Shown here in pieces: positions 1 through 63,759 of a stretch of 64,000 bases of DNA. A program made the translations under genes and the position numbers. Below the pieces are notes generated by a model that did not search any database, was not told where the DNA came from, and was given only the letters and a program-made list of their open reading frames with translations. Source of the stretch: a virus. Lineage: Duplodnaviria > Caudoviricetes. The stretch is taken from the IMG/VR virus record IMGVR_UViG_3300005438_000006, positions 5,852-69,851 of that record. The stretch is one strand, 5' to 3'. Each line of letters begins with the position of its first letter. Within the stretch, counting starts at the first letter, position 1.

Positions 1-345
1 GGAATCTACACGAGCGCTGAAGTTCGCTATGGAGTCGTAATCCCCGAGGACGTAGACGAGGAGCAAGTCGAAAAGCTCATCGAGGATGTAGAGGGCCTGG
101 AGGTAATCAGCTTCGGTGAGCACGACTGGCTTGACGACATTCCGACCTGGGCGCTGGTTCTAACCAAGCCAAAGATAAGCGCTGGCGAATACGCCGTTCA
201 AAAATTCATGCCTCATGAGCTATCCGTTGGTCTTCCGCCCAAAATGGACGAGGCGCAGAATGCCGCGCAGAAGATCGCCCGTGAGCTATGGGACGGCAAC
301 TGGATCGCTGACGTAGCCTGGCTGCTCGTCTGGAGTCGGGGCTGA
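1..345 (+). CDS. 5'-truncated hypothetical protein
   Basis: Frame 1 is open from base 1 to TGA 343-345, which overlaps the next ATG. Confidence 0.6.
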   Translation, partial: GIYTSAEVRYGVVIPEDVDEEQVEKLIEDVEGLEVISFGEHDWLDDIPTWALVLTKPKISAGEYAVQKFMPHELSVGLPPKMDEAQNAAQKIARELWDGNWIADVAWLLVWSRG

Positions 346-623
346 TGCCGCCGCGCGGACGCCCGATGGCGACCTTTGGTATCTGGAGCACGGCGACGCC
401 GGGCGAGGATACCTACGAATTCGTACGTTGGCTGCACGATGATCGTGTGCCCGCTGATTCCAGCTTGTACCTGGCAGCCGACCACTTTGCGGAGCACTTC
501 GCCCAGCATCCCGGCAAGTACATGGTGCAGGTAGTGGGCCGCGGACAATCAGGGCCGCACCTTCAGGCGTTGACGTTCACTGTCGAGCCGGTACAACCAA
601 CCTTTACCGCGAGATTCGGCTGA
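345..623 (+). CDS. hypothetical protein
   Basis: 92 aa ORF with TGATG coupling on both sides. Confidence 0.6.
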   Translation: MPPRGRPMATFGIWSTATPGEDTYEFVRWLHDDRVPADSSLYLAADHFAEHFAQHPGKYMVQVVGRGQSGPHLQALTFTVEPVQPTFTARFG

Positions 624-778
624 TGGCTAAAGACAAAATCATCGAGGCCAAAGTCGAACTACCTGCGTGGCTTGTGAAGCGCGCAGGCGCGACCAACGGG
701 TACGAAACTAAGCGCGTCCTAGAAGACGAGGTCGGCCGCGAGGCAATCGAGCGGGCCATCAAGGAGGCGAAGGCATGA
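623..778 (+). CDS. small hypothetical protein (51 aa)
   Basis: Read by hand: MAKDKIIEAKVELPAW...; overlaps both neighbours. Confidence 0.55.
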   Translation: MAKDKIIEAKVELPAWLVKRAGATNGYETKRVLEDEVGREAIERAIKEAKA

Positions 779-1275
779 GCGACGCGCACTACGGTCACGA
801 CTTGTATGGCGCTTTGCGGAGCGGCTATATTCGCCGCTCTCGCGAAGCGTGCTTCAAGGCGCTGACTGAAGTGCGCGGACGCGTAGACCCAATAGGCGGC
901 GCCGAGGAAAAGCCCGGCGTCGTCTTCGGCCTTGCACTCAGCACGCTGATCCAGTGCGCTGAACGGCAAGGCATCCCCACGGCAACGATCCGCGAAAAGG
1001 TAAAGCGGGTAGCTGACCGATGGGACGAAAGCTTCGGCGGCCACCGGCCGCTAGAGGGTACGGCGCTACTCCAGTTTGACGAAAGCATGGAGGGCGCCCG
1101 CGAAGACCCAGTCGAGACTGGCAATCTGGGCTGGGAGAACTACGACGCCGAGGTTGACGCGATGTCTGAGGAGCGGGCCAAGGAAACTCTAAAGGAGGAG
1201 GCACGCTTACGCAGACAGGCGCAAATCGAGGCAGCCGATTTACGGGAGGGCGTAGACAAATCATCGCCAACCTAG
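775..1275 (+). CDS. hypothetical protein
   Basis: 166 aa ORF, ATGA-coupled, with SD-like AAGGAGG upstream. Confidence 0.65.
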   Translation: MSDAHYGHDLYGALRSGYIRRSREACFKALTEVRGRVDPIGGAEEKPGVVFGLALSTLIQCAERQGIPTATIREKVKRVADRWDESFGGHRPLEGTALLQFDESMEGAREDPVETGNLGWENYDAEVDAMSEERAKETLKEEARLRRQAQIEAADLREGVDKSSPT

Positions 1276-1322
1276 TAAGCTGTTCATGAGCTATCCATTC
1301 CCAACAAAGGAGGTAATCCAAC

Positions 1323-1604
1323 GTGGCACGTCCCGTTTTGGTTATCAAGAACATCGCTGATGCGCCGAAGCGCTACAGCAAAGTCCTGAAGCAGGGCGAC
1401 AAGGCAGTCCGGTTTGAGTTCGGGATTCCGTTCGCGCTACAGGACATCATCGCCGCGAAGCCGCGCGCCAAGAGCGCGATCTTCGGCGTCCTCAACGACG
1501 GCGACCGCTTCGACGGTCAGAAACTCGTTCGCCTGCTGGCGCGCGTGTCCGAGTTGACGATCCCCGAGGTCGTGACCGGCGTCGAGAAGGCCGTCAAGAC
1601 CTGA
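1323..1604 (+). CDS. hypothetical protein
   Basis: AAAGGAGGT SD; -10 TAAGCT at 1276-1281. Confidence 0.65.
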   Translation: MARPVLVIKNIADAPKRYSKVLKQGDKAVRFEFGIPFALQDIIAAKPRAKSAIFGVLNDGDRFDGQKLVRLLARVSELTIPEVVTGVEKAVKT

Positions 1605-1864
1605 TGCTCGCGGTCGGCATCGGCTTCATCGTCGTCCTGCTCCTGGGAGTTCTCTTCCGGGTCGGGCTGACGTGTGGAGCCGTCTACGTGCTGGAGGCGG
1701 TGACGAACCTGCCATCCGGCGTTGACACGATCCTCTGGATCGCGGCGATTCTGTACTCCGCCTACATCATCCTGGTGACGCTGTTCACTCTCGGCGTCGC
1801 GTTGTATGCGGCCAGCCAGGGCCAGTCGGTGCGGAAGGTCCGCGGCCGCCGGTTCCCTGGTTAA
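1604..1864 (+). CDS. membrane protein
   Basis: Two to three hydrophobic segments and a basic C-terminus. Confidence 0.6.
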   Translation: MLAVGIGFIVVLLLGVLFRVGLTCGAVYVLEAVTNLPSGVDTILWIAAILYSAYIILVTLFTLGVALYAASQGQSVRKVRGRRFPG

Positions 1865-2628
1865 GAGCAGTTCACGCTGATGACTCCCGGTACGCAGGCT
1901 TGTACCGGGAGTCCCGGCGCTTCCACACCCACGATAGGAGGTTTTGATGGCGACGATTCAGGCTCAGAAGGTGACGGTGGATTTGCCGACCCTGCTGGTG
2001 GATTCGGGCGGGAAGTCTCTGGGGACGATGGAGCCGGGGCTGGAGTCGATGGGCTACCTGGCTGTACCGGGGACGCTGGATTTTGCGGTTGACCTGGACT
2101 CCCGTCAGGATGATCCGAGCCGGATTTCCCTGACCCTCCGCCTCCTGGCGGCGCACTATTCCCCTCCGGCTGAAGCTTCCCCTGCGGTGCTGGAGACTGT
2201 GAACCGCGTGAACGCTGCTTTGGCGAAACGTCTGACTGGCCAATAACGTCGGTCCCGCGGTCGTGCTGGTTACGAGCTATCCGCAAGCAGTCCCGCGTGG
2301 CGACGCCGGTCAAATCCGGCCGCTTCGAAAGCAGGACGCAAAGCTGATAGTCCGTGATGGAGTCGATGGCCGCCTGGAAGGATTCGTGGCACTGTTTTGA
2401 CTGCGAGCCGTAGCGCAGGCATGGGGATTCGACCTTCGTGATCCGGCTGTTCGTGTCTCCAACTTCAAGCCGCGTCCAGATGAAGCTAGCGATGATGGCG
2501 ATGATGCACAGGATGATGAGCACGAGCTTCGCCTTGCTCACCGACTCCGCGTGCCGGTCGATAACGCCGAGATGCGGGTTCGCGTCGATAAGCTCCTGAG
2601 TCTCCTCTTTGTTCAACGCGTCGCTCAT
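1861..2628 (-). CDS. membrane-anchored Pro/Ser/Gly-rich protein
   Basis: One TM segment (LVLIILCIIAIIASFIW), a Cys-containing domain, then a long Pro-rich linker; AAGGAGG SD. Confidence 0.7.
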   Translation of the reverse strand: MSDALNKEETQELIDANPHLGVIDRHAESVSKAKLVLIILCIIAIIASFIWTRLEVGDTNSRITKVESPCLRYGSQSKQCHESFQAAIDSITDYQLCVLLSKRPDLTGVATRDCLRIARNQHDRGTDVIGQSDVSPKQRSRGSQSPAPQGKLQPEGNSAPPGGGGSGKSGSDHPDGSPGQPQNPASPVQPGSPSTPAPAPSSPETSRPNPPAGSANPPSPSEPESSPSKPPIVGVEAPGLPVQACVPGVISVNCS

Positions 2629-2723
2629 GAGCCTCCTTTAGCCATCATCGAGAAGAGTAGCAACTGCACGCCGATGAACCACACAAGGCAGGTCCGCGGA
2701 AGATGAACGGCAAGCCAGATCAT
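2625..2723 (-). CDS. 32-aa single-TM peptide
   Basis: MIWLAVHLPRTCLVWFIGVQLLLFSMMAKGGS; TAATG/ATGA coupling. Confidence 0.4.
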   Translation of the reverse strand: MIWLAVHLPRTCLVWFIGVQLLLFSMMAKGGS

Positions 2724-2902
2724 TATTTCAAATCCAGCTTCAGTGAGATGGTCGTGGCTGCCAGGATGATTGCCGCCAGGACGATGGTCCCGTCCGGCTT
2801 CTGGCCGTGTTTTGGTCCGATGACGAACTCGTAGAAGAGAATCCCAAGCGCCACGACGAAGAGGATCACGCGTCCGACCTGGGAGGGGGACAGTGACTTC
2901 AT
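2723..2902 (-). CDS. 59-aa two-TM holin-like membrane protein
   Basis: Read by hand (absent from the ORF track): MKSLSPSQVGRVILFVVALGILFYEFVIGPKHGQKPDGTIVLAAIILAATTISLKLDLK. Confidence 0.55.
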   Translation of the reverse strand: MKSLSPSQVGRVILFVVALGILFYEFVIGPKHGQKPDGTIVLAAIILAATTISLKLDLK

Positions 2903-2963
2903 TCATGCGCGGCGGTCAAAAGTGGGCTTGCCATATAGGACATCGTAGCGTAGAATAGTCCGA

Positions 2964-3233
2964 ATGGCCGCACGTCAATTTACCTACACCGACCCAGCCA
3001 GCATCGAAGGCGAACCCGCCGAGGTCGCAGAACTCGCGATCCAGCAGGTCCAGTCTCTTGCGGCGGTAGTGGCGGAGCTATCCACCAAGACCTTCGTCCA
3101 ACTCCGCGCCGCGGGCATTGACCCGGACGCCGACGACGCCGTGAAGGCGTGGCTGGAGACTGAGGACGGCAAGAAGGCTGCCGATCTGGTGTGGGGAGCG
3201 CAGGCTTTCGTTGAAGTGGCCCAGCAACTCTGA
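2964..3233 (+). CDS. hypothetical protein, leaderless
   Basis: TAGAAT at 2951-2956 lies 7 nt before the ATG. Confidence 0.65.
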   Translation: MAARQFTYTDPASIEGEPAEVAELAIQQVQSLAAVVAELSTKTFVQLRAAGIDPDADDAVKAWLETEDGKKAADLVWGAQAFVEVAQQL

Positions 3234-3316
3234 TTTGGCTCTACGAGGTCATTTCGCTCCTCTCTTTGACGTTACCGACACGATGAACCGCGCGCCATAG
3301 GCCGCGGCCGTGCGTC

Positions 3317-3344
3317 TTCATAACCAGTATGACACCTGTGTCAA
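3317..3344 (-). promoter_or_regulatory. TTGAC-N7 promoter-like motif, copy 1
   Basis: TTGACA-caggtgt-CATACT-GGTTATGAA; matches copies at 3731, 10056, 20559 and 53823. Confidence 0.55.
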
Positions 3345-3415
3345 GTCCTCCAGCGGCCGTCTCCGGTGACGTGGCCCGACGCCGCTGCTACCCCCTTCGG
3401 GGTCGCGAGGCGTCG

Positions 3416-3444
3416 AGCGTACACGTTCAAATTCCATTTGTCAA
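3416..3444 (-). promoter_or_regulatory. sigma70/SigA-type promoter
   Basis: TTGACA-17 nt-TACGCT. Confidence 0.6.
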
Positions 3445-3730
3445 ATAGTGGCTATTTGCAGGGCTTTTGGGCGACTGTGGCGGAAGGAAACTCAGAGCCG
3501 GTTTAAGGCTTTGGCCCTCTACGATTCGGCTTCGCCATAAAAATTTGGCTCTGCAACAGGGATTCCGGCGTTATCTGCCAATCCTAAACATAATTCCGAG
3601 GTCGTTGGGCTTTGGCCCTCTTCAGGTATAAGCGTATAGCTGATACTTCCCGATATATAAGCATATGGCTGATACCCACAACCCCACGCCGTTGTACCCG
3701 CCCCATACAACGTCCCAGGGTTGTGGGCGC

Positions 3731-4213: not shown

Positions 4214-4267
4214 CCGGCCTGCTACGCTGGTTGCGAGCCATGATCGTCAATCGAGGAGGATACTGTT

Positions 4268-5515
4268 TTGAGTCAGATTTCGGCCGCTGAGAAGCGCGCC
4301 ATCATCGAGCGGGCGCAGCAGTTGCTCGCCGAGCCAGGCGCCACCCAGCGCACCGTCGCTGACCAGCTTCCCATCGGTCAGTCAACGCTTTGTGAATGGC
4401 TGCGCGCCGAGGGTATCGAGAATTCCGGGCAGGCTGGTGGGCCTGAGCCAGCGGGCATCACGACTGACGGCACGGACGCCTCCATCGCGTCTGACCTCGT
4501 CGCGGATGCGAGCACGCTCACGCCTGAGCAGCTACTGGAAAAGCACGGCCTTGACGCCGATGACTGGATCGTCACGTCGATCCGGGCTAGCCGCTGGGGC
4601 AAGCCGGAGGAACCGCAGTTCCAGCTTCGGGTCAACGCAACCCGGCGCGAGGGTCTTCTCGTCATCCCGGACCTCGGCGACTTCGAGCCGTGGGAGTACG
4701 GCCAGATCGAAGAGTTCGCGCCGCGGCAAGTTGCCTTGATCCCCGACCTCCACGCGCCGTTCCACGACGAGCGGGCGTTGCGGGCGGTCTGCGACCTCCT
4801 GGCGGCGGAGGAACCGGAACAGGTCATCTTCTTGGGCGACGTAGCAGACAACTCAATGCTCTCCAAGCACCGGACGCATCGGCGCTTCAGCGCGTTGCTC
4901 AACGAGACGAACGACGCCGTCGTGAAGAATTTCCGTCGGGTCCGCGAAGCCGTGCCGGAGGCAAGCATCGTCTTTCTGCCGGGCAACCACGATGACCGCG
5001 TCCTCTACTACGCCCAGGACATGGCGCCCGAGTTCGAAGGCGTCCGCCCCGGCCGCCTGCCGGAGGACTTGGACGAGCCGCTGCCGAGCATTGGCTTCCG
5101 TCAGCTTTGGCGGCTGGACGAGTTGGGCATCGAGTTGGTGGACGAGGACTGGAAACTCGCGCAGTACGGCATCACGCCCGAGCTATCCGCTCGCCACGGC
5201 TACCTGACCGGCAACAACTCCGAGCGCAAACTGCTGGAGAAGCACGGCCGCTCGCAGGTCCACGGCCACGACCACCGCGGCTCGCTGGTCTACCGGACGA
5301 AGCACGATCCGCTGGACATCCGCGTCGCGATGTCCTGTGGAACGCTCTGCGAGATTAAACCGGACGGTCTCGGCTATGAGCCGGACCCCGACTGGACGCC
5401 CGGTATGGGCTGGTGTCAGGTCTGGGAGGATGGGCTGTTCCAACTGAGCTTCCTGCCTTACGTGAAAAACAAACTGCTGACCCCGTGGGGTATGGCATTC
5501 GAGGGGAAGGAGTAA
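4268..5515 (+). CDS. calcineurin-like metallophosphoesterase with N-terminal HTH
   Basis: Motifs IPDLH, LGDVAD, PGNHDDR, RHG, VHGHDH; HTH-like ATQRTVADQLPIGQSTLCEW. Confidence 0.85.
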   Translation: MSQISAAEKRAIIERAQQLLAEPGATQRTVADQLPIGQSTLCEWLRAEGIENSGQAGGPEPAGITTDGTDASIASDLVADASTLTPEQLLEKHGLDADDWIVTSIRASRWGKPEEPQFQLRVNATRREGLLVIPDLGDFEPWEYGQIEEFAPRQVALIPDLHAPFHDERALRAVCDLLAAEEPEQVIFLGDVADNSMLSKHRTHRRFSALLNETNDAVVKNFRRVREAVPEASIVFLPGNHDDRVLYYAQDMAPEFEGVRPGRLPEDLDEPLPSIGFRQLWRLDELGIELVDEDWKLAQYGITPELSARHGYLTGNNSERKLLEKHGRSQVHGHDHRGSLVYRTKHDPLDIRVAMSCGTLCEIKPDGLGYEPDPDWTPGMGWCQVWEDGLFQLSFLPYVKNKLLTPWGMAFEGKE

Positions 5516-52487: not shown

Positions 52488-52517
52488 AGCGTAGCACATT
52501 CGGATTTTTCATGTCAA
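52488..52517 (-). promoter_or_regulatory. SigA-type promoter upstream of portal
   Basis: TTGACA-18 nt-TACGCT with extended TG. Confidence 0.6.
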
Positions 52518-54018: not shown

Positions 54019-54343
54019 TGGCCTGGAGAAGGGGGTTTTATGCCTTTGGCCCTCTAGGTTTCGATCTTTGGGTGGGTGCAAGCCCCGCCCCACATCCCCA
54101 CGACCCGCACATTTTCGGGATTTACGCTTGACAAGCGGGCTGAAATGTGGTAGCGCCGGGTTGTGGGTTTGACGCGACACTGGTGTCTGACGAAATCGGC
54201 GCAAGGAGTTGTGGGGTTGCGGCAACTACCACAACCCCACATCCCTGTCAAGTATTCGTTGTGTGCATATCTCACATTGCGTACGTTAATCGCCTGCTAG
54301 GTTTGTGGGGTCGCAGTAACCAAACAATCGAAAGGAACGCGAC

Positions 54344-54730
54344 ATGAACACGAACCGACCGGCCTACATCGTGCAGTGCGCCATCTTCGCGCTGCTCATC
54401 ATTGGCTGTCTGGCCTGCGCCACTGCCAAGGGCGCGACCTCCACCCCCACCGCTCACGCCTGCTTCAGGGCTGACCACTGGGGACCGGCACCCGACACCA
54501 TCCGCCCATGCGTGACGCTGAAGGGCAACACGCCTGAAGCCGGGGCGCTGGCCTTCAAGGTGTACGACGCGCGGGGTACCACCCGCTACACGGGGTTCAT
54601 CAATACCCCCTTCCATCGCATCGCCCGCGTGGCCGTGGTCTATCTGGGCGAGGATGGCAGCGTTCAATACTACGTTGCCAACTTCAACGGCCGCCACGTA
54701 CAGGGCACCATCGGCAACTTGGAGGACTGA
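54344..54730 (+). CDS. secreted/membrane-anchored protein
   Basis: N-terminal signal-like hydrophobic segment; GAAAGGA SD. Confidence 0.65.
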   Translation: MNTNRPAYIVQCAIFALLIIGCLACATAKGATSTPTAHACFRADHWGPAPDTIRPCVTLKGNTPEAGALAFKVYDARGTTRYTGFINTPFHRIARVAVVYLGEDGSVQYYVANFNGRHVQGTIGNLED

Positions 54731-54732
54731 GC

Positions 54733-54910
54733 GATGGGTATCCGCATAACGAATACCCGCACTGGCAAGAGCACTGAGGCCAAGGATGGCAAGGACGCGG
54801 CGCTCATGGCGCGCATCGAGCTTGACAGGCGTACCGGGATCGAACTCACTGAGACCGAGCGCAAGGCCGAGATGTCGGAGGAGAACCGCCGGGAAAGGCA
54901 GGCAGCATGA
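54733..54910 (+). CDS. small hypothetical protein
   Basis: Read by hand: MGIRITNTRTGK...RQAA. Confidence 0.5.
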
Positions 54911-55018
54911 AGGGCAAGAGACGTAAGCCAGCTTGGGCGCAGAGCCACCATTCGAAGCCCAAGCGAGTGGGCGGCCGACGTGAGCGGTCGAAGCTCCGGC
55001 AACTCAAGGCCGAGCGCT

Positions 55019-55534
55019 ATGCCTAGCCCCAACAACCCCACGCCGCGGATCATCCTCGCGGCGTGGGGACTGCTCGCCGCCCTCATGCTGTGGATTCCCC
55101 ACACCGCGACGGCCGCGCAGTACCCGCCGCCCGCTGAGGGCTGGGGCGCCGCGATCTGGCACACCGCCGAATCTGTCTACGGCGGGCCGCCGCCGCTCTG
55201 TGGAACGCTCACGGTCGAATACGACCGCGCGCCGGTCTTCCACCCCGGACGGGGCGGGGAGGCCAGCATCCCGGCGAAGCCGGGGACCGAATGTTTCGCC
55301 CACCTAGCGCCGATGCGCCCCGGCGCGGGGGAATATCTCTGCAACGTCACCTTGCACGAGTACGGCCACCTGATGGGACTGGGGCACGTCCCCGACCCGC
55401 ACGCGCTCATGTATGGCGACCCGTGGGCGGAAGCCGCCCCGTGGGAATACGTGGGGCATCCGGCCTGCTGGAAGTTCGGACACTGGCAGCGCTGGCAGTC
55501 ATACCTAGCCAGCGAGCGCGCGGCCGGGGACTAG
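55019..55534 (+). CDS. secreted metzincin (matrixin-like) Zn peptidase
   Basis: Signal peptide; HEYGHLMGLGH (HExxHxxGxxH); Met-turn ALMY. Confidence 0.75.
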   Translation: MPSPNNPTPRIILAAWGLLAALMLWIPHTATAAQYPPPAEGWGAAIWHTAESVYGGPPPLCGTLTVEYDRAPVFHPGRGGEASIPAKPGTECFAHLAPMRPGAGEYLCNVTLHEYGHLMGLGHVPDPHALMYGDPWAEAAPWEYVGHPACWKFGHWQRWQSYLASERAAGD

Positions 55535-55540
55535 CGCCAG

Positions 55541-55583
55541 TGTGACCAACGTCACACACAAACCCGCGCCGCGGCGCTAGTCT
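55541..55583 (+). promoter_or_regulatory. Crp-type box plus -10 (class II geometry)
   Basis: TGTGA-ccaacg-TCACA; TAGTCT at +37. Confidence 0.85.
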
Positions 55584-55589
55584 GTGTCC

Positions 55590-56147
55590 ATGAAGTCAAC
55601 CCCACGAAACGGAGATACCACGATGAAAGCATGTCAAAACTGCGGCGGTACTGAGTGGGTTCGCTGCGAAGACGGGACGGCCTGCGGTAACTGCGGCCTC
55701 CTCCCCTACGTCGAGCCGAGCGCGGAAGAAATCGCGCAATCCGAGCGGGAGGCTGCCGACGCGGGCGATCCCGCCATGCGCAAGCGAAGCGCAGAGCGTA
55801 CCCAATTCCTAGCGGATGTTCTTGTCTCCATCGTGGAGGACGGCGGATACAACGGCTGGCGGCGAATCAAGGCCGGGACGTACCAATACGACCCGCCCGC
55901 CGAGGCGCGAGCCGAGATTTTCTGTATCGGCGACGGCCGACCCGAGGAATACTCAGATCACGACGTGACGTTGGAGACCGTCGCGCAAGGCATCGCCAAG
56001 CTGCAAAGCGGAGACATTCAGGTCAACTCGGAATTGCTCGGCTGGATTCTGGCGGGCAACGCCAAGAACGACGGCGGGGACATCGACGCAGAGGCCGCAG
56101 ACATCATCTTGCAGGCGGCGCTGTTCGGGGAACTCGTCTACGGCTAG
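55590..56147 (+). CDS. hypothetical protein with N-terminal Zn ribbon
   Basis: CQNC...CGNC; the start may be 55590 or 55623. Confidence 0.6.
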   Translation: MKSTPRNGDTTMKACQNCGGTEWVRCEDGTACGNCGLLPYVEPSAEEIAQSEREAADAGDPAMRKRSAERTQFLADVLVSIVEDGGYNGWRRIKAGTYQYDPPAEARAEIFCIGDGRPEEYSDHDVTLETVAQGIAKLQSGDIQVNSELLGWILAGNAKNDGGDIDAEAADIILQAALFGELVYG

Positions 56148-56190
56148 TGTGACCAACGTCACAGACGGCGCGGGCGATCCGCGCTAGGGT
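56148..56190 (+). promoter_or_regulatory. Crp-type box plus -10
   Basis: TGTGA-ccaacg-TCACA; TAGGGT at +37. Confidence 0.85.
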
Positions 56191-56223
56191 ACTGGAAACG
56201 TCACTCGTACGAAAGGAATCAAA

Positions 56224-56589
56224 ATGCAGCGAGAGCTTTTGAACAATTGGCTGGAGGCGCTTCGATCCGGCAAGTACCCGCAGACGGTCGGCGTAATGCG
56301 CGGCCTGCTGCACGAGGATGACGACGGCACGCCGTTGGACGAGCCGAAAATGGGTTACTGCTGCTTAGGCGTCCTCTGTGACGTGGTCGATCCGAAAGGA
56401 TGGGAGAACGAGGAAAGCGGCGATCACGCGCTTGAATCCGATACCGAGGCGTACCTACGCCCGTCAGCGTTGGAGACGGTCGGCCTGACGGACACGGTGC
56501 AGCGCGAGTTGGCGACCATGAATGACGACGGCGCACCGTTCACGGAGATTGCCGACCAGATCGAGGAGAGCGTCAAGGCGACGGACTAG
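56224..56589 (+). CDS. conserved phage hypothetical protein
   Basis: WLEALRSGKYPQT...YCCLGVLCD...MNDDG.PF.EIAD pattern. Confidence 0.7.
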   Translation: MQRELLNNWLEALRSGKYPQTVGVMRGLLHEDDDGTPLDEPKMGYCCLGVLCDVVDPKGWENEESGDHALESDTEAYLRPSALETVGLTDTVQRELATMNDDGAPFTEIADQIEESVKATD

Positions 56590-56717
56590 GCCACGCGGGA
56601 GCGCTACGGCGCTCCCCGCTAAGCCGCAGAGTTTCCCCGGACGATTCGACCGGCGAGCGCTCCAGCGGCTTAGCGGGGAATCCTCCCCACGAATCAACGC
56701 GAAAGGAATCTCATACA

Positions 56718-58264
56718 ATGAGCACCTACTACGGAAGACTTCAAGGCAACCGGGGCGGCGTCACCCGCTGCGGTAGCGCGTCGTCTGGCATCCGCGCCAG
56801 CGTGGAGGTCACGGACAAGCACGGCAACCAGACCGGCCTACGGTTTGACATCGACGCGGACGGCCTAGCGCGCTTCGCCCGTGGTGGCGGAGTCGGCGGG
56901 GAGTACGGCGGCGACGATGTCGAAACCACGGCTCGGCTAGACGAGATACGCGAGGACATCGACGCCGGAATGCGCGAGGCGGCCGAGCGGATCAACGCGG
57001 CGCTGAAGCTGGAAGCCGAACTGGAAGACGGGGCAGAACTGTGAACCGCTGGGTAGACAGAGAAATAACGAGCATTGAGCGGCTGTCCTGCACCGTCAAC
57101 GGAAACCCGCGCTTCAAGATCGGCCTTGACGGGGAGACGTACGTTACGTCCTCTGACGCGGCATTCTGTTATGAGGTCGGAAACCCCGGCTACCGTTGCG
57201 GCTCACATGTACGCGTGCAGTTCACGCGGGCGGAGCGGATTGCCAATATGGAAACTAAGGAGTTCGGATGATCGACGGCCGCCAGATCAAAGCAGGGGAG
57301 GTAGAGGAGGGCAACGAGATTTTGCTCACGGCCTCCCCCGAGCGCTGGGGCGTAGTCGAAGACGCGCGCACACTCCCGGACACGTCAGGATCGAAGTCTG
57401 CGGACTGGCGACGCGCCATCCCGCAGACCAGACTGTGACGGTAGCCGCATGATCGGGCTACTGGAACGCTACCTGTTCGGTCCCCCGACGCCGCTACCGC
57501 TTGCCGGTTGGGTCTGCGCCAATCCCGCCTGCCGGGAACCGCTGAACACCGCGCAGAGCGTCCACCGTCACGGCCGCTTGCTGTACTGCGGTCGATGCGG
57601 AAGGCGGAGCGGATGACGCCCCGCACCTACCCCGGCCGCGACAAGGCGCGCCTGATTCGCCGGGCGAAGTCGATCCAGCGGCATCACGCGAACCCCGCGA
57701 ACGAACGCGCTCATTGCTGCGATGCGCCCGACCACGTCGAGCAGCGCAACTCCAGCGGCTTGGCGACGCTCTGCCGCAACTGTGGGGCGGTTGTCTGATG
57801 CACGCGCGAGCCGGAAGACAGCGCCGCCGTCCAACTGACGGACGCTCAGTCTGGGCGTTCGGCGGACGCGCTGGATACTGGCCTTGCCTGCGGGCGTTCT
57901 TCGCCAAGTTCGATTTCGGGCCGGTCTTCGTTGAGTTGTGTCTAGGGGGCAAGACTGCCCCGCCTTGGTGGAAGGAGGCTTGACCATGAACCGCTACAGT
58001 ATGCGAGTGCCAACGCTCGCGGAAACCTGCGCCGACTTCATCGGGCCGCTGAATCCCCACGTCGGCCGGTTCGTGCGCGTCCACCGTCACGAGCGCGGCC
58101 CACGCGTCTACCTCGCAGGACGGCGCATCCACCACGGACCCGCGTTCGGCCTCGCCGCGATCCTCTGCTGGCGCGGACGCTGGCGGCGCTTGGCAATCGC
58201 TCTGGGTGCATACGCGGCCACCGACTACAGGGATTTCCCGTTCACCGACAAATGCAACCATTGA
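56718..58264 (+). CDS. run of small early ORFs (56718-57044, 57041-57271, 57268-57452, then further short coupled ORFs to 58264)
   Basis: GAAAGGA SD and ATGA/GTGA overlaps; the boundaries of the later ORFs are uncertain. Confidence 0.45.
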
Positions 58265-58271
58265 GCTATCC

Positions 58272-58400
58272 ATGATGCAATCGTGTCCACACTGCGGAAG
58301 TACCGACATCGTCGCCGTTGAGCTATCCGAGGAGGAGCGCGACTGTCTATATGAGTGCGAAGACTGCGAGGAGCAATTCAACGGCGACGAGTTTGTGTGA
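58272..58400 (+). CDS. small Zn-ribbon protein
   Basis: CPHCGS...CEDC. Confidence 0.55.
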   Translation: MMQSCPHCGSTDIVAVELSEEERDCLYECEDCEEQFNGDEFV

Positions 58401-58438
58401 CGAAGCTCACACACGACAACCCCACAAACTGATAGCCT
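58396..58438 (+). promoter_or_regulatory. Crp-type box plus -10
   Basis: TGTGA-cgaagc-TCACA; TAGCCT at +37. Confidence 0.85.
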
Positions 58439-58467
58439 GAGCTATCCACTAGGAAAGGAAACTGAGA

Positions 58468-58749
58468 ATGCGAACTTGGAAGCGGCAACCCCCTTGGAAA
58501 GTCACGGCCTTCTACCTTGACCGCCCGCCATACGATCCGAAATTCGGCAGTCTGCGCTGGGCGAGCAGCTTTGAGACGCGCGACCTGAGCGGCAATATCT
58601 TGATGCGCGAATTCGCGAAGACGAGCCCCGCACCTGGGCGCTATCTCCTAGTAGGCGGTCCTGGGCCTGTGGACAACGTCAACCCGGTTATCGTGAAGGT
58701 CGAACCAAAACGCTGTAAGGTTCGCGTCAATTTCGATAATCCCTGCTGA
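58468..58749 (+). CDS. hypothetical protein
   Basis: GAAAGGA SD. Confidence 0.55.
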   Translation: MRTWKRQPPWKVTAFYLDRPPYDPKFGSLRWASSFETRDLSGNILMREFAKTSPAPGRYLLVGGPGPVDNVNPVIVKVEPKRCKVRVNFDNPC

Positions 58750-58933
58750 GCTATCCATGCACGCGCGCCGAGACAAACAACGAACGCGTCCCCGCGACGG
58801 GCGCCCGGTCTGGGCGTTCGGGATTAGGGCGGGCTACTGGCCTTGTCTCGGCGCGCTGTTCGTCAAGGTCGATTGCGGCCCGATCTTCGCTGAGTTCGTC
58901 ATCGGCCATCGTCGGCCACCGTGGTGGGAATAG

Positions 58934-58976
58934 TGTGACGAACGTCACACACAAACTTCAACCAAGCTGTTAGCAT
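58934..58976 (+). promoter_or_regulatory. Crp-type box plus -10
   Basis: TGTGA-cgaacg-TCACA; TAGCAT at +37. Confidence 0.85.
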
Positions 58977-59020
58977 CGAGCTATCCCAAAAGTAAACGAC
59001 CCCCCCCCTAGCGGGGAGGA

Positions 59021-59545
59021 ATGGAGGGCATACATATGAGGAAGCAGCACGATTTCAAGGTCGGTGACAAAATCAAGCGTTACGATGGCGTCACGGCCAC
59101 GGTCGAAAGGATCGACCCGTCCTGCAACAACGTCTACGCCAAGGATTTCTCCAATGGCCGCCGCGACGGCGAGGAAATCTACGCGGTTGGCGACTGGCGG
59201 GTTGTGGCATCCACTCCGGCCGCCACGACCACTGCTCGCGATTTCGTGGACCACTACGACAAGTTTGAGGTCACGATTCTGCGGGACACGTCGGGGAGTG
59301 ACGCGTTCGCTCTGAGCGACAGCTTCGGCGCCCGCTTCGTTCATCGCGCGACGGTGGACAAGCGCGGTCAGGGGCTGTCCTACCCGACGCAGGTACGCGA
59401 GTATCTGGAGGAGGTCGGTCAGACGCTGGACGTTCCCGGCAAATACATCGCCATCGCGGTCTACGGCGACAATGACACGATTTGCGCCAAGTTCTCAACC
59501 GAAAAGATTGAGCAACCCATCGCAGTCAACTTCGACGCCGCCTAA
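59021..59545 (+). CDS. hypothetical protein
   Basis: ORF downstream of a boxed promoter. Confidence 0.6.
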   Translation: MEGIHMRKQHDFKVGDKIKRYDGVTATVERIDPSCNNVYAKDFSNGRRDGEEIYAVGDWRVVASTPAATTTARDFVDHYDKFEVTILRDTSGSDAFALSDSFGARFVHRATVDKRGQGLSYPTQVREYLEEVGQTLDVPGKYIAIAVYGDNDTICAKFSTEKIEQPIAVNFDAA

Positions 59546-59560
59546 TCGCCGCCCGGCGTG

Positions 59561-59603
59561 TGTGACCAACGTCACACACGCCGGGTAATCAAACTGCTAG
59601 TGT
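59561..59603 (+). promoter_or_regulatory. Crp-type box plus -10 (rIIA/B promoter)
   Basis: TGTGA-ccaacg-TCACA; TAGTGT at +37. Confidence 0.85.
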
Positions 59604-59646
59604 CCAGTTATCGAATCGAAACCGAGTGAAAGGAATCTGACCCCAC

Positions 59647-61713
59647 ATGATCCCCGAGCGAACCGCAATCGAGGTAACGTCCACCGTGAAGGGCGAGGAC
59701 GTGGCGATGACGATTGACGAGGCCGCCATTCAGCATCTCATGAACGTGCTGACCGACCTCTACGAAGACCCGCTGCTGGCTGTCATTCGTGAGTACAGCA
59801 CGAACGCGTGGGACTCGCACGTCGAAGCCGGACAGACGAAGCCGATTGAGGTTTCCACGCCTACCGACCTGCGCCCGCTGTTCACGGTGCGCGACTACGG
59901 GGTTGGCCTGAGCGCTGAGGACATCCGCAACATCTACAGCCGCTACGGCGCCAGCACGAAGCGCGCCTCAAACGATGCGGTCGGGATGCTCGGCCTTGGC
60001 TGCAAGTCGGCGCTCGCCTACTGCGACCAGTTCACCCTCTGCGGGATCAAGGACGGCAACCGCATTCTCGTCTCCATCGCACGCGACGAAACCGGCGCGG
60101 GCACGATGACGGTTCTGGAGTCGGGCGAGACTGACGAGCCAAACGGGGTTGAAATCTCCATCCCCGCCAGCGCCGACAGTGAGTTTGAGGCCAAAGCGGC
60201 CGATTTCTTCGCCTACTGGCAGCCGGGTTCGGTCCTGCTGAACGGCCAGCCGCCCGCCGAACTCGCGGGCTACCGCGTGGGCGACTACATCGTGGCCGAC
60301 CGCGTCCGTAACGCGTGGGACGCGAGCGGGCGGCACGACTACCGGCCGCTGACCATCGTTATGGGGAACGTCAGCTACCCGCCACCGGATGGCTTCCAGA
60401 GCGATGCGGTGGACTCCCTGCCCGCCGACAAGCGGCTTGTCGTCACCGTCCCCATCGGCGCGGTCCACTTCACGCCTTCGCGAGAGGGCTTGCAGGACTC
60501 AGACCGCACGCGTGCAGCTATCCACGCGGCGCTGGAGGATTTCCAGAGCGAGGTCGCGGCAGCCGTGAAGGATGCCATCGAGGGTGCGCCCGACCGCCCC
60601 GCTGCCGCTCGCGCGTTGATCGAAGCTCGCGCGGCGTTCGGGAAGGCCAACGTCTTGGAGTTGGAGTGGCAGGGCGAGGAGATTCCCGTTGTCCTCTCCG
60701 CCGAAGACTTGGCGCCCATCGTGGAAGACGAAGGAAAGAAAGAACACGCGGCGCAACTGTGGGCGGCGAAGGTAGTCAGCGGCTACCGCGGCGGCCAGTC
60801 GCATCGCTACCCGGCCGGGCAAATCACGCTGGACGATGCCGGAAAGAACCCGTGGATTCTCGGCTACTCAAACAGCAAATGGACGGCCGCCCAGCGGCGC
60901 AAGTTCCAGCGCTACCTTGAACACCATGAGCTACACGAGAATCCCTCGCAGGCCACGTTCTTTATTACGGATGGCAGCGCCGTTCCGCGTACGGAGTGGC
61001 TTGGCGGTGCCGTGACTGCCGTCACCTGGCAGACGGTTCGCGAGTGGAAAGACCCGGTTGCCAAGAGCGCAGGCGGAGTGGGCGGCGTCTCCTACGCGGG
61101 CACCTACCCGACCTACTACAGCGGTTGGCGGACGCATGGCAAATTCCCCGCCAGCGAGTTGGCCGAACTCCCGCAGCGCAAGGTCTTCTACGTCGAAGGC
61201 GAAAAGTGGAGCGAGCGCGCGCAAGCGGTTGCCGCCGCGCTGGACCCGGACTGTCACGTCGTCTGCCTGTCTCCCACGCGAGCAGCCAAGTTCAAGCGGA
61301 CGTTCCCAGAAGTCAGAGATGGCATTCCCGTCGCGCGCAAGGCCATCAAAGGCAGGATGCGTCAGCTATCCGATCTGGAGCGGGCCGCGCTCGCGCTGGA
61401 AGGCGGATGGTGGCGGCCGAACTCCATCCTCTCCCACATCGACCCCGACGAACTGAACGATCCAGAGCTAGCCCGCGCGGCGGCCATCTTCCGCATCATC
61501 GACGCGGGCGAACTGCGGTCGCGGACTGAGGAATGGTTCCCGCTCGTGGACCGGCCGACTGAGGAGGAGACCGATACGGAAAATATCCGCGAAGTCTTGA
61601 ATCCGTACGCGTTACTCGATAGCATCTCTACCTATGAAGCGAGAGCCAAGCTGGATCATGTCGTGCTGTACGCAAACGCGGTCTACGCCGCCAATCAGAA
61701 TGAGGAGGACTAA
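59647..61713 (+). CDS. rIIA: rIIA-like protein (GHKL/HSP90-type ATPase N-domain)
   Basis: LYEDPLLAVIREYSTNAWDSH, VRDYGVGLS, YGASTKR, GMLGLGCKS. Confidence 0.88.
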   Translation: MIPERTAIEVTSTVKGEDVAMTIDEAAIQHLMNVLTDLYEDPLLAVIREYSTNAWDSHVEAGQTKPIEVSTPTDLRPLFTVRDYGVGLSAEDIRNIYSRYGASTKRASNDAVGMLGLGCKSALAYCDQFTLCGIKDGNRILVSIARDETGAGTMTVLESGETDEPNGVEISIPASADSEFEAKAADFFAYWQPGSVLLNGQPPAELAGYRVGDYIVADRVRNAWDASGRHDYRPLTIVMGNVSYPPPDGFQSDAVDSLPADKRLVVTVPIGAVHFTPSREGLQDSDRTRAAIHAALEDFQSEVAAAVKDAIEGAPDRPAAARALIEARAAFGKANVLELEWQGEEIPVVLSAEDLAPIVEDEGKKEHAAQLWAAKVVSGYRGGQSHRYPAGQITLDDAGKNPWILGYSNSKWTAAQRRKFQRYLEHHELHENPSQATFFITDGSAVPRTEWLGGAVTAVTWQTVREWKDPVAKSAGGVGGVSYAGTYPTYYSGWRTHGKFPASELAELPQRKVFYVEGEKWSERAQAVAAALDPDCHVVCLSPTRAAKFKRTFPEVRDGIPVARKAIKGRMRQLSDLERAALALEGGWWRPNSILSHIDPDELNDPELARAAAIFRIIDAGELRSRTEEWFPLVDRPTEEETDTENIREVLNPYALLDSISTYEARAKLDHVVLYANAVYAANQNEED

Positions 61714-61715
61714 CC

Positions 61716-62918
61716 ATGTATCCGATTCACCACGTTAAACGCGAGAGCGGCGCAGAGAGCTTGACGGTATTCATGCCGGACGGGCCGCCTGTAGTCGTTA
61801 ATCACGAGCACCCCCACTTCGCCAAGATTCTGGAGTACGCGATGGCGGGCGAGGGCAGCGTCACGGTCTACGGCGCTGAGGAGATTCGCGACCTGGCCGA
61901 CCTGAGCGGCAAGGTAGCGGAGCGCTTCGACACGCTGAGCGAGCGCGTCTCGGTTGCGGCCGGGCACGTCTACTTCGACGGCGACAAGGTCGATTCGACC
62001 ATTACCCAACAGATCATCCGCTGTCTGGAAGACGAGGACGCCGGAGACTGGAAGCCGCTCGTCCTGTTCATGGAGAATGTGGCGGCGAACCCGAATCCGC
62101 ATTCGCGCGAGCAGCTTTTCGACTGGTTGCGGGACCGCGATTTCACGATCACGTCGGATGGCTGCTTCATCGCCTTCAAGGGTGTCCACGCCCGCGACGG
62201 CGAAGCTGAGGATGGCTATCCGTATCAGTCGGCCAGCCGGGGCGCGGCCATCGTTGACGGCCAGCCGTACAGCGGCGCGATTCCCAACGGCGTCGGCGCG
62301 GTGGTCGAGATGCCGCGCGGCGACGTGCAGCACAACCCGTCCGCTGGATGCTCAACCGGCCTCCACGTCGGCACGCACAACTACGCCCAGAGCTACGCGC
62401 GGGCGGCCCTGCTGACCGTTCACGTCAACCCGCGTGACGTTGTGTCGGTCCCGACCGACTGCAACGCCGAAAAGATGCGCGTCTGCCGCTACCGCGTACA
62501 GGATGACGATCCGACTCCCCCGGAGGAGGCGGCAGCCATCGACTACGGCGAGGAGGTTGACGAGTCGCCTGAGTCAGAGGGACGGCGGCTCTATCCGGCC
62601 CTGAACGGTGCCTGCACTCCCGAGTATGAGGGTAAGGACTGGTTCGTCGCCACCGGCGAGAGGGGCGACTGCGGCGGCAAGTTCTACCTGCATGATGAAC
62701 AGGCGGTCTACGGCTACGTCGGTGGAGGTAACGAAATCATCCTCGTGCCGACTGAGCCGCAGCACGGCGACGAAAAGGTGGAGAACGGCAAAGTCCACTT
62801 CTACCTTGACGATCCTGTGTCGTCGCGCGAAACCAAGGGCGCGCACTGGGTTCCCGCAGACGGTAGGACGCGGGCTGAGTTCATCGACGCCCACAAAGGC
62901 TGCTTCGGGAAAAGCTGA
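61716..62918 (+). CDS. rIIB: rIIB-like protein
   Basis: ITSDGCFIAFKGV, CSTGLHVG, VNPRDVVSVPTD, KMRVCRY. Confidence 0.88.
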   Translation: MYPIHHVKRESGAESLTVFMPDGPPVVVNHEHPHFAKILEYAMAGEGSVTVYGAEEIRDLADLSGKVAERFDTLSERVSVAAGHVYFDGDKVDSTITQQIIRCLEDEDAGDWKPLVLFMENVAANPNPHSREQLFDWLRDRDFTITSDGCFIAFKGVHARDGEAEDGYPYQSASRGAAIVDGQPYSGAIPNGVGAVVEMPRGDVQHNPSAGCSTGLHVGTHNYAQSYARAALLTVHVNPRDVVSVPTDCNAEKMRVCRYRVQDDDPTPPEEAAAIDYGEEVDESPESEGRRLYPALNGACTPEYEGKDWFVATGERGDCGGKFYLHDEQAVYGYVGGGNEIILVPTEPQHGDEKVENGKVHFYLDDPVSSRETKGAHWVPADGRTRAEFIDAHKGCFGKS

Positions 62919-62939
62919 CGGGGGTCAGACGGCGCCGTG

Positions 62940-62982
62940 TGTGACCAACATCACACACGGCGCCACAAACTTCTGATACATT
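62940..62982 (+). promoter_or_regulatory. Crp-type box plus -10
   Basis: TGTGA-ccaaca-TCACA; TACATT at +37. Confidence 0.85.
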
Positions 62983-63156: not shown

Positions 63157-63759
63157 ATGACCCAGAAGCAGAAGCAGGCCAAATACGCCGCCGAACACCG
63201 ACATATGCGCGACCGTCTGCTGGACATCTACGCTGGCACTGACGCTGACACGCGCCAAGCCGGGCGGCTCTGGTACCCGTCTGCGGAAGGCGTCATCGCA
63301 TCCCTTTCTGACTCGCACGGGATCGGGCGGCCGAGGGTGGCGGGCATTGTCGCCGTCCTCTCGCCGCAACAGCGCTGGCGGACGAACGTTCGCAGCGCCC
63401 GCGCGATGCTGGAGGGCGAGGACTGGCTGGCCGCCGGGTACGCGCAGAACCGCGATAAGGCGCGGGCGCTGCTGGAGGGGGCGCCGGTCCTCGCCGTAGT
63501 CGGCGGAGACAAGGTGACGAGCTTTTGGGCCAACCTGATTGGCTCGCGTACGGCGGTGACGGTGGACGTGTGGGCGCAGCGCGCCGCGCTGGGCCGCCAC
63601 CATCCGCATCAACCGAAGGGTGCGCGTTATCGGCGCATCGTCAACGCTTACCGGGCGGCCGCCGCGAAGGTCGGCGAGTTGCCGCGCGAGTTCCAAGCCA
63701 TCGTCTGGCTGGGTACGCGCCCCGCTGCCGAACACGACCGCGATTGGAGGGAAAATTAA
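63157..63759 (+). CDS. conserved phage protein (helical, glycosylase-like family; function unknown)
   Basis: WYPSA, AVLSPQQRWRTN, KVTSF, VTVDVWA, AYRAAA, QAIVW. Confidence 0.65.
   Translation: MTQKQKQAKYAAEHRHMRDRLLDIYAGTDADTRQAGRLWYPSAEGVIASLSDSHGIGRPRVAGIVAVLSPQQRWRTNVRSARAMLEGEDWLAAGYAQNRDKARALLEGAPVLAVVGGDKVTSFWANLIGSRTAVTVDVWAQRAALGRHHPHQPKGARYRRIVNAYRAAAAKVGELPREFQAIVWLGTRPAAEHDRDWREN

Follow-up and report, generated by a model that had tools for sequence, protein, structure and literature searches.

Perfect Crp/GlxR-type boxes at class II spacing mark one predicted promoter class in the presumed early block of an apparent actinophage lineage

RESULTS

Crp-type boxes define a sharply bounded promoter class

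Every operon in a ~19-kb block of small genes of an apparently lytic actinophage is headed by a palindrome of the form TGTGA-N6-TCACA or, in one case, an imperfect version of it, and these boxes probably act as the upstream activator site of a single promoter class composed of the palindrome, 21 bp of variable DNA, a usually TGN-extended −10 and no usable −35 element. The DNA analysed, here called the window, is a 64-kb stretch covering bases 5852–69851 of a 69,851-bp IMG/VR virus contig (G000); coordinates are those of the window unless given as contig positions. Six exact matches to the box lie in the window at the positions originally predicted (Table 1), where a mean of 0.02 is expected by chance and none of 100 dinucleotide-preserving shuffles got to six. 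A seventh perfect box with identical geometry is located at contig 3891, 1960 nt before the window start. The box is 16 bp long, and its ten core positions are perfect in all seven sites of the genome.

The boxes stand at a constant distance from a −10-like hexamer. Each of the six window boxes is followed by a TANNNT hexamer with its first base 37 nt from that of the box, as the original prediction held, leaving 21 bp between the two elements, and this spacing is unchanged in the seven perfect sites of the genome; from base composition, TANNNT at one fixed offset has a probability of ~0.007 per site. Five of the window hexamers read TAGNNT and one reads TACATT, with TGN directly before four of the six. 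Taken from the box to the predicted −10 only, the distances (21 bp to the hexamer, 22 bp to its second base) support the class II geometry proposed for these promoter elements, and a review describes the 22-bp distance from the site to the second −10 base as exclusive to class II promoters. The −10 function of the hexamers and the resulting start sites are predictions from sequence. A consensus scan detected no sigma-70-type −35/−10 promoter between 53500 and 64000, and the bases at 17-bp spacing from the −10 match at most the last three positions of the −35 consensus. Reading the box itself as a −35 element of an extracytoplasmic function (ECF) sigma factor or of a long-spacer promoter was rejected, since the 21- and 27-bp spacings are incompatible with either.

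A position weight matrix (PWM) built from the whole 49-nt unit and run over both strands of the genome gave scores above 12 to the perfect sites only. The box class is sharply bounded, because nothing was found between the perfect sites and background. All boxes lie on the coding strand, face the genes and fall within the single small-gene block, and the six in the window occupy minimal gaps, 0–21 nt past the preceding stop codon. Eight box promoters, seven perfect and one imperfect (P0), head the operons of the block, including those of rIIA/rIIB and DUF7178.

The boxes persist across four lineages

The contig is a circularly permuted, essentially complete genome of ~70 kb, since two related sequences, G001 (69.1 kb) and G002 (63.6 kb), cross its end-to-start junction uninterrupted, with a stretch of similar length there; the CheckV completeness of 59% is an underestimate. 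The same architecture is present in three further lineages, G001 (with its near-twin L029), G002 and L035, which together with G000 make four lineages drawn from IMG/VR and JGI metagenomes. These lineages contain 20 perfect boxes with all ten core positions invariant. Twelve forms of the inner spacer occur, and the flanks too diverge around constant half-sites; the P3 orthologue in G002, for instance, has a different inner spacer. The TA of the hexamer is found at +37 in 19 of the 20 boxes, the full TANNNT in 18 and a TGN ahead of it in 15, and position 11 of the box is G, A or C, with G in half of the boxes.

The first promoter of the block departs from this pattern in a conserved way. At 54261, where the original prediction placed a degenerate seventh site, the right half-site and the +37 hexamer are intact and the site is real, but it is weaker than described: its left half-site lies 1 nt out of place, and it scores under the PWM cut-off. 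The orthologues of P0 in G001, G002 and L035 have exactly one mismatch each at the same 21-bp geometry. The imperfection of the first promoter is thus itself conserved. Just 5′ of P0, a GC-rich inverted repeat (54208–54241) is kept in G000, G001 and G002 and separates divergent minus-strand promoters from the plus-strand block.

Gene content between the boxes varies widely among the lineages, and the boxes persist. Most genes between P1 and P5 (55590–59545) have no homologue in G001 and G002, with the flanking P0 operon and rIIA/rIIB conserved. By sequence comparison, 55590–59545 is a hyperplastic cassette region bounded by box promoters.

Among cultured phages, the nearest are actinophages with merely 27–37% protein identity, and a megablast of the region against cultured phages gave no match. 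Streptomyces phage Mildred21, the nearest isolate by rIIA, has no box in its 132 kb. Gordonia phage Ranch was rejected as a relative, as the blastn match of one promoter fell by chance inside a gene and Ranch lacks the box. Scanning IMG/VR with rIIA as a single protein returned no relatives, and a pattern scan that included the −10 added only two matches, both in low-GC sequence and by chance. Close DUF7178 homologues are encoded on 50–67-kb Logan contigs, pointing to many further genomes of this phage family.

A host Crp/GlxR-family dimer is the most likely binder

The most likely binder of the boxes is a Crp/GlxR-family dimer of the host, an assignment in which our confidence is moderate. 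It is the most economical reading because the complete genome has no recognisable regulator, and the boxes combine the Crp consensus with class II geometry. The box is the consensus of E. coli, mycobacterial and corynebacterial Crp, and those boxes with G at position 11 match the S. coelicolor motif GTG-N6-GNCAC as well. The host dimer would bind the box centred at about −41.5 and recruit the host RNA polymerase holoenzyme in the class II manner of galP1, such that host parts alone would switch on the block of a phage that lacks its own transcription factor. The palindrome would, at several sites, also be the tip of a long hairpin that ends the preceding transcript, placing terminator and promoter in one cassette. 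We infer activation rather than repression. The proposal that host cAMP-Crp controls the block stands insofar as boxes head every operon, including rIIA/rIIB, and the phage has no Crp, but there is little ground for a gate set by cAMP or metabolic state, as DNA binding by actinobacterial Crp depends little on cAMP. Mycobacterial Crp gains only about 2-fold in DNA affinity from cAMP, and GlxR shows residual DNA binding in a strain without cAMP.

Profile searches recovered no phage-encoded regulator. In six frames of the complete genome, PF00027, PF13545 and PF00325 (cNMP_binding, HTH_Crp_2 and Crp) had no match at E ≤ 1, nor did HTH_3, HTH_17, Sigma70_r4 or WhiB, and PF13545 is also absent from G001 and G002. 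The original observation that the window contains no Crp-family gene therefore extends to the whole, essentially complete genome, and the suggested alternative of a phage factor encoded outside the window is largely closed for Crp-family proteins. Pfam and PHROGs searches of ~80 predicted proteins found no regulator, and sequence searches of six proteins against the PDB gave nothing significant. ESM Atlas searches with two proteins returned DUF7178 only for one and gave no more than weak leads (Rv2632c/Gp49-like) for the other. The model of a basic, highly conserved protein of 93 aa (1323–1604) had a predicted local distance difference test (pLDDT) score of 65 and no fold match, and a metallophosphoesterase (4268–5515), a candidate cAMP phosphodiesterase, had no PDB relative by sequence. 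Since no helix-turn-helix (HTH), sigma, WhiB or Crp domain is found, yet there are at least two promoter classes, phage regulators, if any, would come from unrecognised families.

Several points weigh against a host Crp as the binder. Scans of bacterial genomes with an RtcB-like protein and a portal alignment found no relatives, and thus gave neither a host clue nor a genome baseline for box density. Activating Crp sites reported for mycobacteria lie at −62.5 to −95.5, and the mycobacterial Crp papers considered here record no case of class II activation by an actinobacterial Crp. All 20 boxes are perfect with no intermediates, position 6 is C in 18 of them and the spacers are alike within a genome; such an all-perfect, position-6-biased set would also be expected for a phage-specific protein or after recent cassette duplication. 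The −10 position carries a poor hexamer in one P1 orthologue and one P6 orthologue. Finally, a DNA-binding protein could be concealed among the dozens of small phage proteins for which neither fold nor family is detectable.

The strongest competitor, less likely but serious, is a phage-encoded dimeric DNA-binding protein that profiles cannot recognise, either an activator made from the less dependent P0 or a later-acting repressor. Such an activator would resemble small phage activators like P2 Ogr and T4 MotA in its mode of action. The uniformly perfect sites without graded affinities and the strand-specific preference at position 6 favour such a protein, P0 is imperfect in all four lineages as a bootstrap promoter would be, and the block encodes many conserved small proteins of unknown fold, including a basic 61-aa protein with Cys and His residues, a 58-aa protein of the P0 operon and the basic 93-aa protein. 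However, no HTH, sigma, WhiB or Crp-type domain was found in six frames of the complete genome, the modelled DUF7178 protein folds like an HhH-GPD enzyme rather than a regulator, the 93-aa protein has no usable model or match, and the P0 operon otherwise codes for signal-peptide-like proteins. A private factor would also have to arrive by convergence at precisely the host Crp consensus and class II spacing, and a factor needed at the first promoters would be absent at time zero unless packaged in the virion.

Hairpins are an added feature of some boxes

Five of the 20 boxes cap hairpins of 14–16 bp, with 7–10 extra paired bases per side and z-scores of −5.6 to −7.9 against shuffles. In G000, the P5 hairpin, with an outer palindrome extension of 9 bp, folds at −33.9 kcal/mol (z −7.9) and the P6 hairpin at −29.7 kcal/mol (z −7.5). 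The box after rIIB tops a perfect 14–16-bp hairpin in G000, G001 and G002 (−30 to −34 kcal/mol, z −5.6 to −7.5), the arms of which differ in sequence among the three lineages and keep their complementarity. The other long-stem boxes are the one before rIIA in G000 and one box in L035. The stems of P5, P6 and their orthologues (14–16 bp, −30 to −34 kcal/mol) are without a downstream U tract, and a simple terminator scan listed none on the plus strand. We read the long hairpins as terminator-like stems fused to the next promoter, that is, as putative terminator-promoter cassettes.

It is improbable that the palindromes serve chiefly as hairpins of the nucleic acid or as cassettes for recombination (terminators, processing sites or PeSL-like shuffling modules), with no sequence-specific protein reading the half-sites. 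The five long stems, the co-varying post-rIIB flanks in three lineages and the persistence of boxes around differing gene content, which resembles the PeSL (promoter-early stem-loop) cassettes of T4-type phages, would all suit this explanation. Against it, the outer extension is just 0–4 bp in 15 of the 20 boxes, and of the ordinary boxes, two were folded and proved no more stable than shuffled sequence (z about −1.1 and −1.2). In 11 of the 20 boxes, no pair can form between positions 6 and 11, and the five-base half-sites are still invariant. The fixed 21-bp distance to the −10 hexamer is left unexplained as well. Because the two ordinary boxes fold like shuffles and positions 6 and 11 are unpaired in 11 boxes, the hairpin is best regarded as an added feature and not the cause of half-site conservation.

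Another host regulator with the same core, the redox repressor Rex or a Crp paralogue, would link the block to redox or another signal and is very unlikely: Streptomyces and Staphylococcus Rex operators match the generic TGTGA-N6-TCACA, but Rex, with the operator consensus TTGTGAA-N4-TTCACAA, needs A at position 6 and T at position 11, each found in 0 of the 20 phage boxes, and it is a repressor, whereas a site at −41.5 is placed for activation when the promoter has no −35.

A second promoter-like class serves the rest of the genome

A second promoter-like class consists of TTGAC(A/G), 7–8 nt and TANNNT, often followed by GGTTATGAA (Table 1). It precedes the replication genes on the plus strand and tRNA/late and other genes on the minus strand, and it neither occurs within the box block nor carries a box, so that the two classes partition the genome. 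With the replication and tRNA/late regions under another class, the box class stands for a transcription programme of its own. The geometry of the TTGAC class, which ordinary holoenzyme would not be expected to read, suggests a phage-modified polymerase. The box promoters instead pair an ordinary extended −10 with a host-type site, and this difference supports the view of the box block as early, a timing that we presume here.

The hexamer TACGCT recurs as a TGN-extended −10 at 52517 and 3444 on the minus strand and at 4220, 16520 and 52690 on the plus strand. Two of these copies have a canonical TTGACA at 16–17 bp, one of them just 5′ of the portal gene, and the TACGCT promoters may be a third promoter type.

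Operons and genes of the block

The features of the genome and of the box block are listed in Table 1. For P1, the original prediction correctly placed the box centre 41.5 nt before an ATG at 55590, but the leaderless start that this implied is not supported in a relative, where the ATG opens just a 10-codon open reading frame. The start of the P1 gene is more likely at 55623, since a Shine-Dalgarno sequence is present there and the ATG at 55590 leads to so short a frame in the relative. P4 has the top PWM score. The P6 operon runs over the contig end into contig 1–3568.

Table 1. Coordinates of the main features (window positions unless marked as contig)
Feature	Position	Strand	Description
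Replication and nucleotide genes	1–27,000	+	
Terminase, lysis, tail, capsid and portal genes, 15 tRNA-type genes	27,400–53,800	−	
Small-gene block	54,300 through contig end to about contig 5,200	+	~45 small, mostly unknown genes plus rIIA, rIIB and DUF7178
P0	54261–54303	+	Imperfect box, 21-bp spacer, TGN-extended predicted −10 at 54298–54303; first promoter of block; serves 54344–55534
P1	55541–55583	+	Perfect box 55541–55556; predicted −10 55578–55583; serves gene ending at 56147
P2	56148–56190	+	Perfect box 56148–56163 right after upstream stop codon; predicted −10 56185–56190; serves ~10 small genes, 56224–58400
P3	58396–58438	+	Perfect box 58396–58411 overlapping upstream stop codon; TGN-extended predicted −10 58433–58438; serves 58468–58933
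P4	58934–58976	+	Perfect box 58934–58949 directly past stop codon; TGN-extended predicted −10 58971–58976; serves 59021–59545
P5	59551–59603	+	16-bp perfect hairpin 59551–59586 with perfect box 59561–59576 at apex; TGN-extended predicted −10 59598–59603; serves rIIA and rIIB
rIIA-like gene	59647–61713	+	688 aa; 33–37% identity to Streptomyces cluster BE phage proteins
rIIB-like gene	61716–62918	+	400 aa; PHROG 609, RIIB, E 5e-54
P6	62931–62982	+	14-bp hairpin 62931–62964 capped by perfect box 62940–62955; TGN-extended predicted −10 62977–62982
Conserved untranslated stretch 3′ of P6	62984–63112	+	Mostly invariant in three lineages; 75% mean column identity (wider alignment)
DUF7178 gene	63157–63759	+	Pfam PF23802, E 2e-40; first coding gene of P6 operon; conserved in G001 and G002
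Second promoter-like class	4210, 10056, 20559	+	
Second promoter-like class	53823, 54017, 49755, 8581, 3344	−	

The P0 operon is conserved in all lineages and encodes 128-aa and 184-aa proteins with signal-peptide-like N-termini, the latter with an HExxH matrixin-like motif, as well as the 58-aa protein, the first ~40 residues of which are conserved. The basic 61-aa protein (57613–57798) is conserved and shows an HNH-like DH..N..CxxC pattern. Further along the block, contig 4345–4695 encodes a conserved basic protein of 116 aa with a KOW-like motif, and contig 4925–5188 an 87-aa protein made up solely of a WYL domain (Pfam E 8e-8). Homologues of the rIIA-like gene are named rIIA-like or RIIA lysis inhibitor in several cluster BE records. 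The DUF7178 protein, conserved and basic, has more than 90 homologues, mostly from uncultured phage contigs, and its AlphaFold2 (AF2) model (pLDDT 95) finds HhH-GPD 8-oxoguanine glycosylases as best PDB folds, weakly (template modelling (TM) score 0.5–0.56, E 0.1–0.4).

Two untranslated elements accompany the box promoters. The ~125-nt stretch after P6 (aligned with L015:2591–2719 and L018:11824–11952) is conserved far above other intergenic DNA and has three compensatory pairs in its predicted fold; after it, a tRNA-Leu(caa) is inserted in G002 and a tRNA-like insert, not called by ARAGORN, in G001. An Rfam search of the window returned tRNAs and nothing else. The polar 9-mer GAGCTATCC often begins 0–1 nt past the −10 of box promoters (58439, 58978 and others; also L008, L012 and L035), usually 10–30 nt ahead of a Shine-Dalgarno sequence. 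Its occurrence in leaders too and, in G002, within a spacer between box and hexamer marks it as an independent element.

DISCUSSION

The box promoters resemble class II CRP promoters of the galP1 type in enterobacteria by their 16-bp site, the 21 bp to the predicted −10, a TGN in most copies and the lack of a usable −35. They differ in that the host would be an actinobacterium, all copies carry the perfect consensus and both binding and activation are predictions; moreover, instead of serving single cellular operons, these sites make up the principal promoter class in one block of a phage genome. The same consensus is found in the actinobacterial Crp/GlxR regulons of M. tuberculosis (Rv3676), M. 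smegmatis (Crp1), C. glutamicum (GlxR) and S. coelicolor (Crp), in which, however, cellular sites are degenerate and occupy many positions, with activating examples at the upstream positions given above and a small effect of cAMP on binding.

A published computational precedent for phages that exploit a CRP-family regulator of the host is given by the NtcA sites of cyanophages, NtcA being a member of the CRP/FNR family. T4-like cyanophages carry 1–16 NtcA sites per genome, which were read as exploitation of the host regulator (PMC3037559, Sullivan et al. 2010). Multiple sites per phage genome for a global regulator of the host are thus common to both proposals, but the NtcA sites have another motif (GTA-N8-TAC), another host phylum and a 2-oxoglutarate signal, and they were predicted probabilistically and are scattered over functions (PMC3037559).

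Cassette organisation recalls the PeSL cassettes of T4-type phages, in which an early promoter and a terminator stem-loop lie between small non-essential genes (PMC2839356, Arbiol et al. 2010). Gene content between cassettes varies among relatives in both systems; in contrast, PeSL promoters are strong and of sigma-70 type with a −35 (PMC2839356), which the box promoters lack. Unlike in PeSLs, the tip of the stem-loop here is the activator box, and the long stem accompanies only 5 of the 20 boxes. We therefore do not count the box promoters among the PeSLs, in view of the missing −35 and the few long stems.

In P2 and P4 (Ogr and Delta) and in T4 (MotA), a protein-binding element replaces the −35 and defines a temporal class of promoters. 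Ogr/Delta sites lie at about −55 (TGT-N12-ACA) and MotA sites at −30, and both are read by known phage proteins. In contrast, no such phage protein is detectable in the genome described here. In our literature search, no report turned up of a phage promoter class based on CRP boxes, whether from actinophages or from other phages. Two features of the class appear to be new in this lineage, namely a first promoter whose imperfection is conserved, and hairpins that are capped by a box and maintained through compensatory change.

A broader scenario, which we put forward only tentatively, is that this actinophage lineage outsources its whole first block to host Crp through perfect class II sites. 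The replicating genome might then soak up Crp and rewire host metabolism, and the imperfect P0 and box-capped terminators might set the order and insulation of the cassettes.

If host Crp drives these promoters, infection by the phage family would hang on a single global regulator of the host, offering a simple route to sensing of host state, to limits on host range and to resistance via crp mutation. Such a mechanism would also show class II activation by an actinobacterial Crp and would provide promoter and terminator cassettes for use in actinobacteria that are compact, strong and Crp-dependent. The idea that phage promoter classes rest on host CRP-family regulators could be put to the test with synthetic DNA and purified proteins, without a cultured phage.

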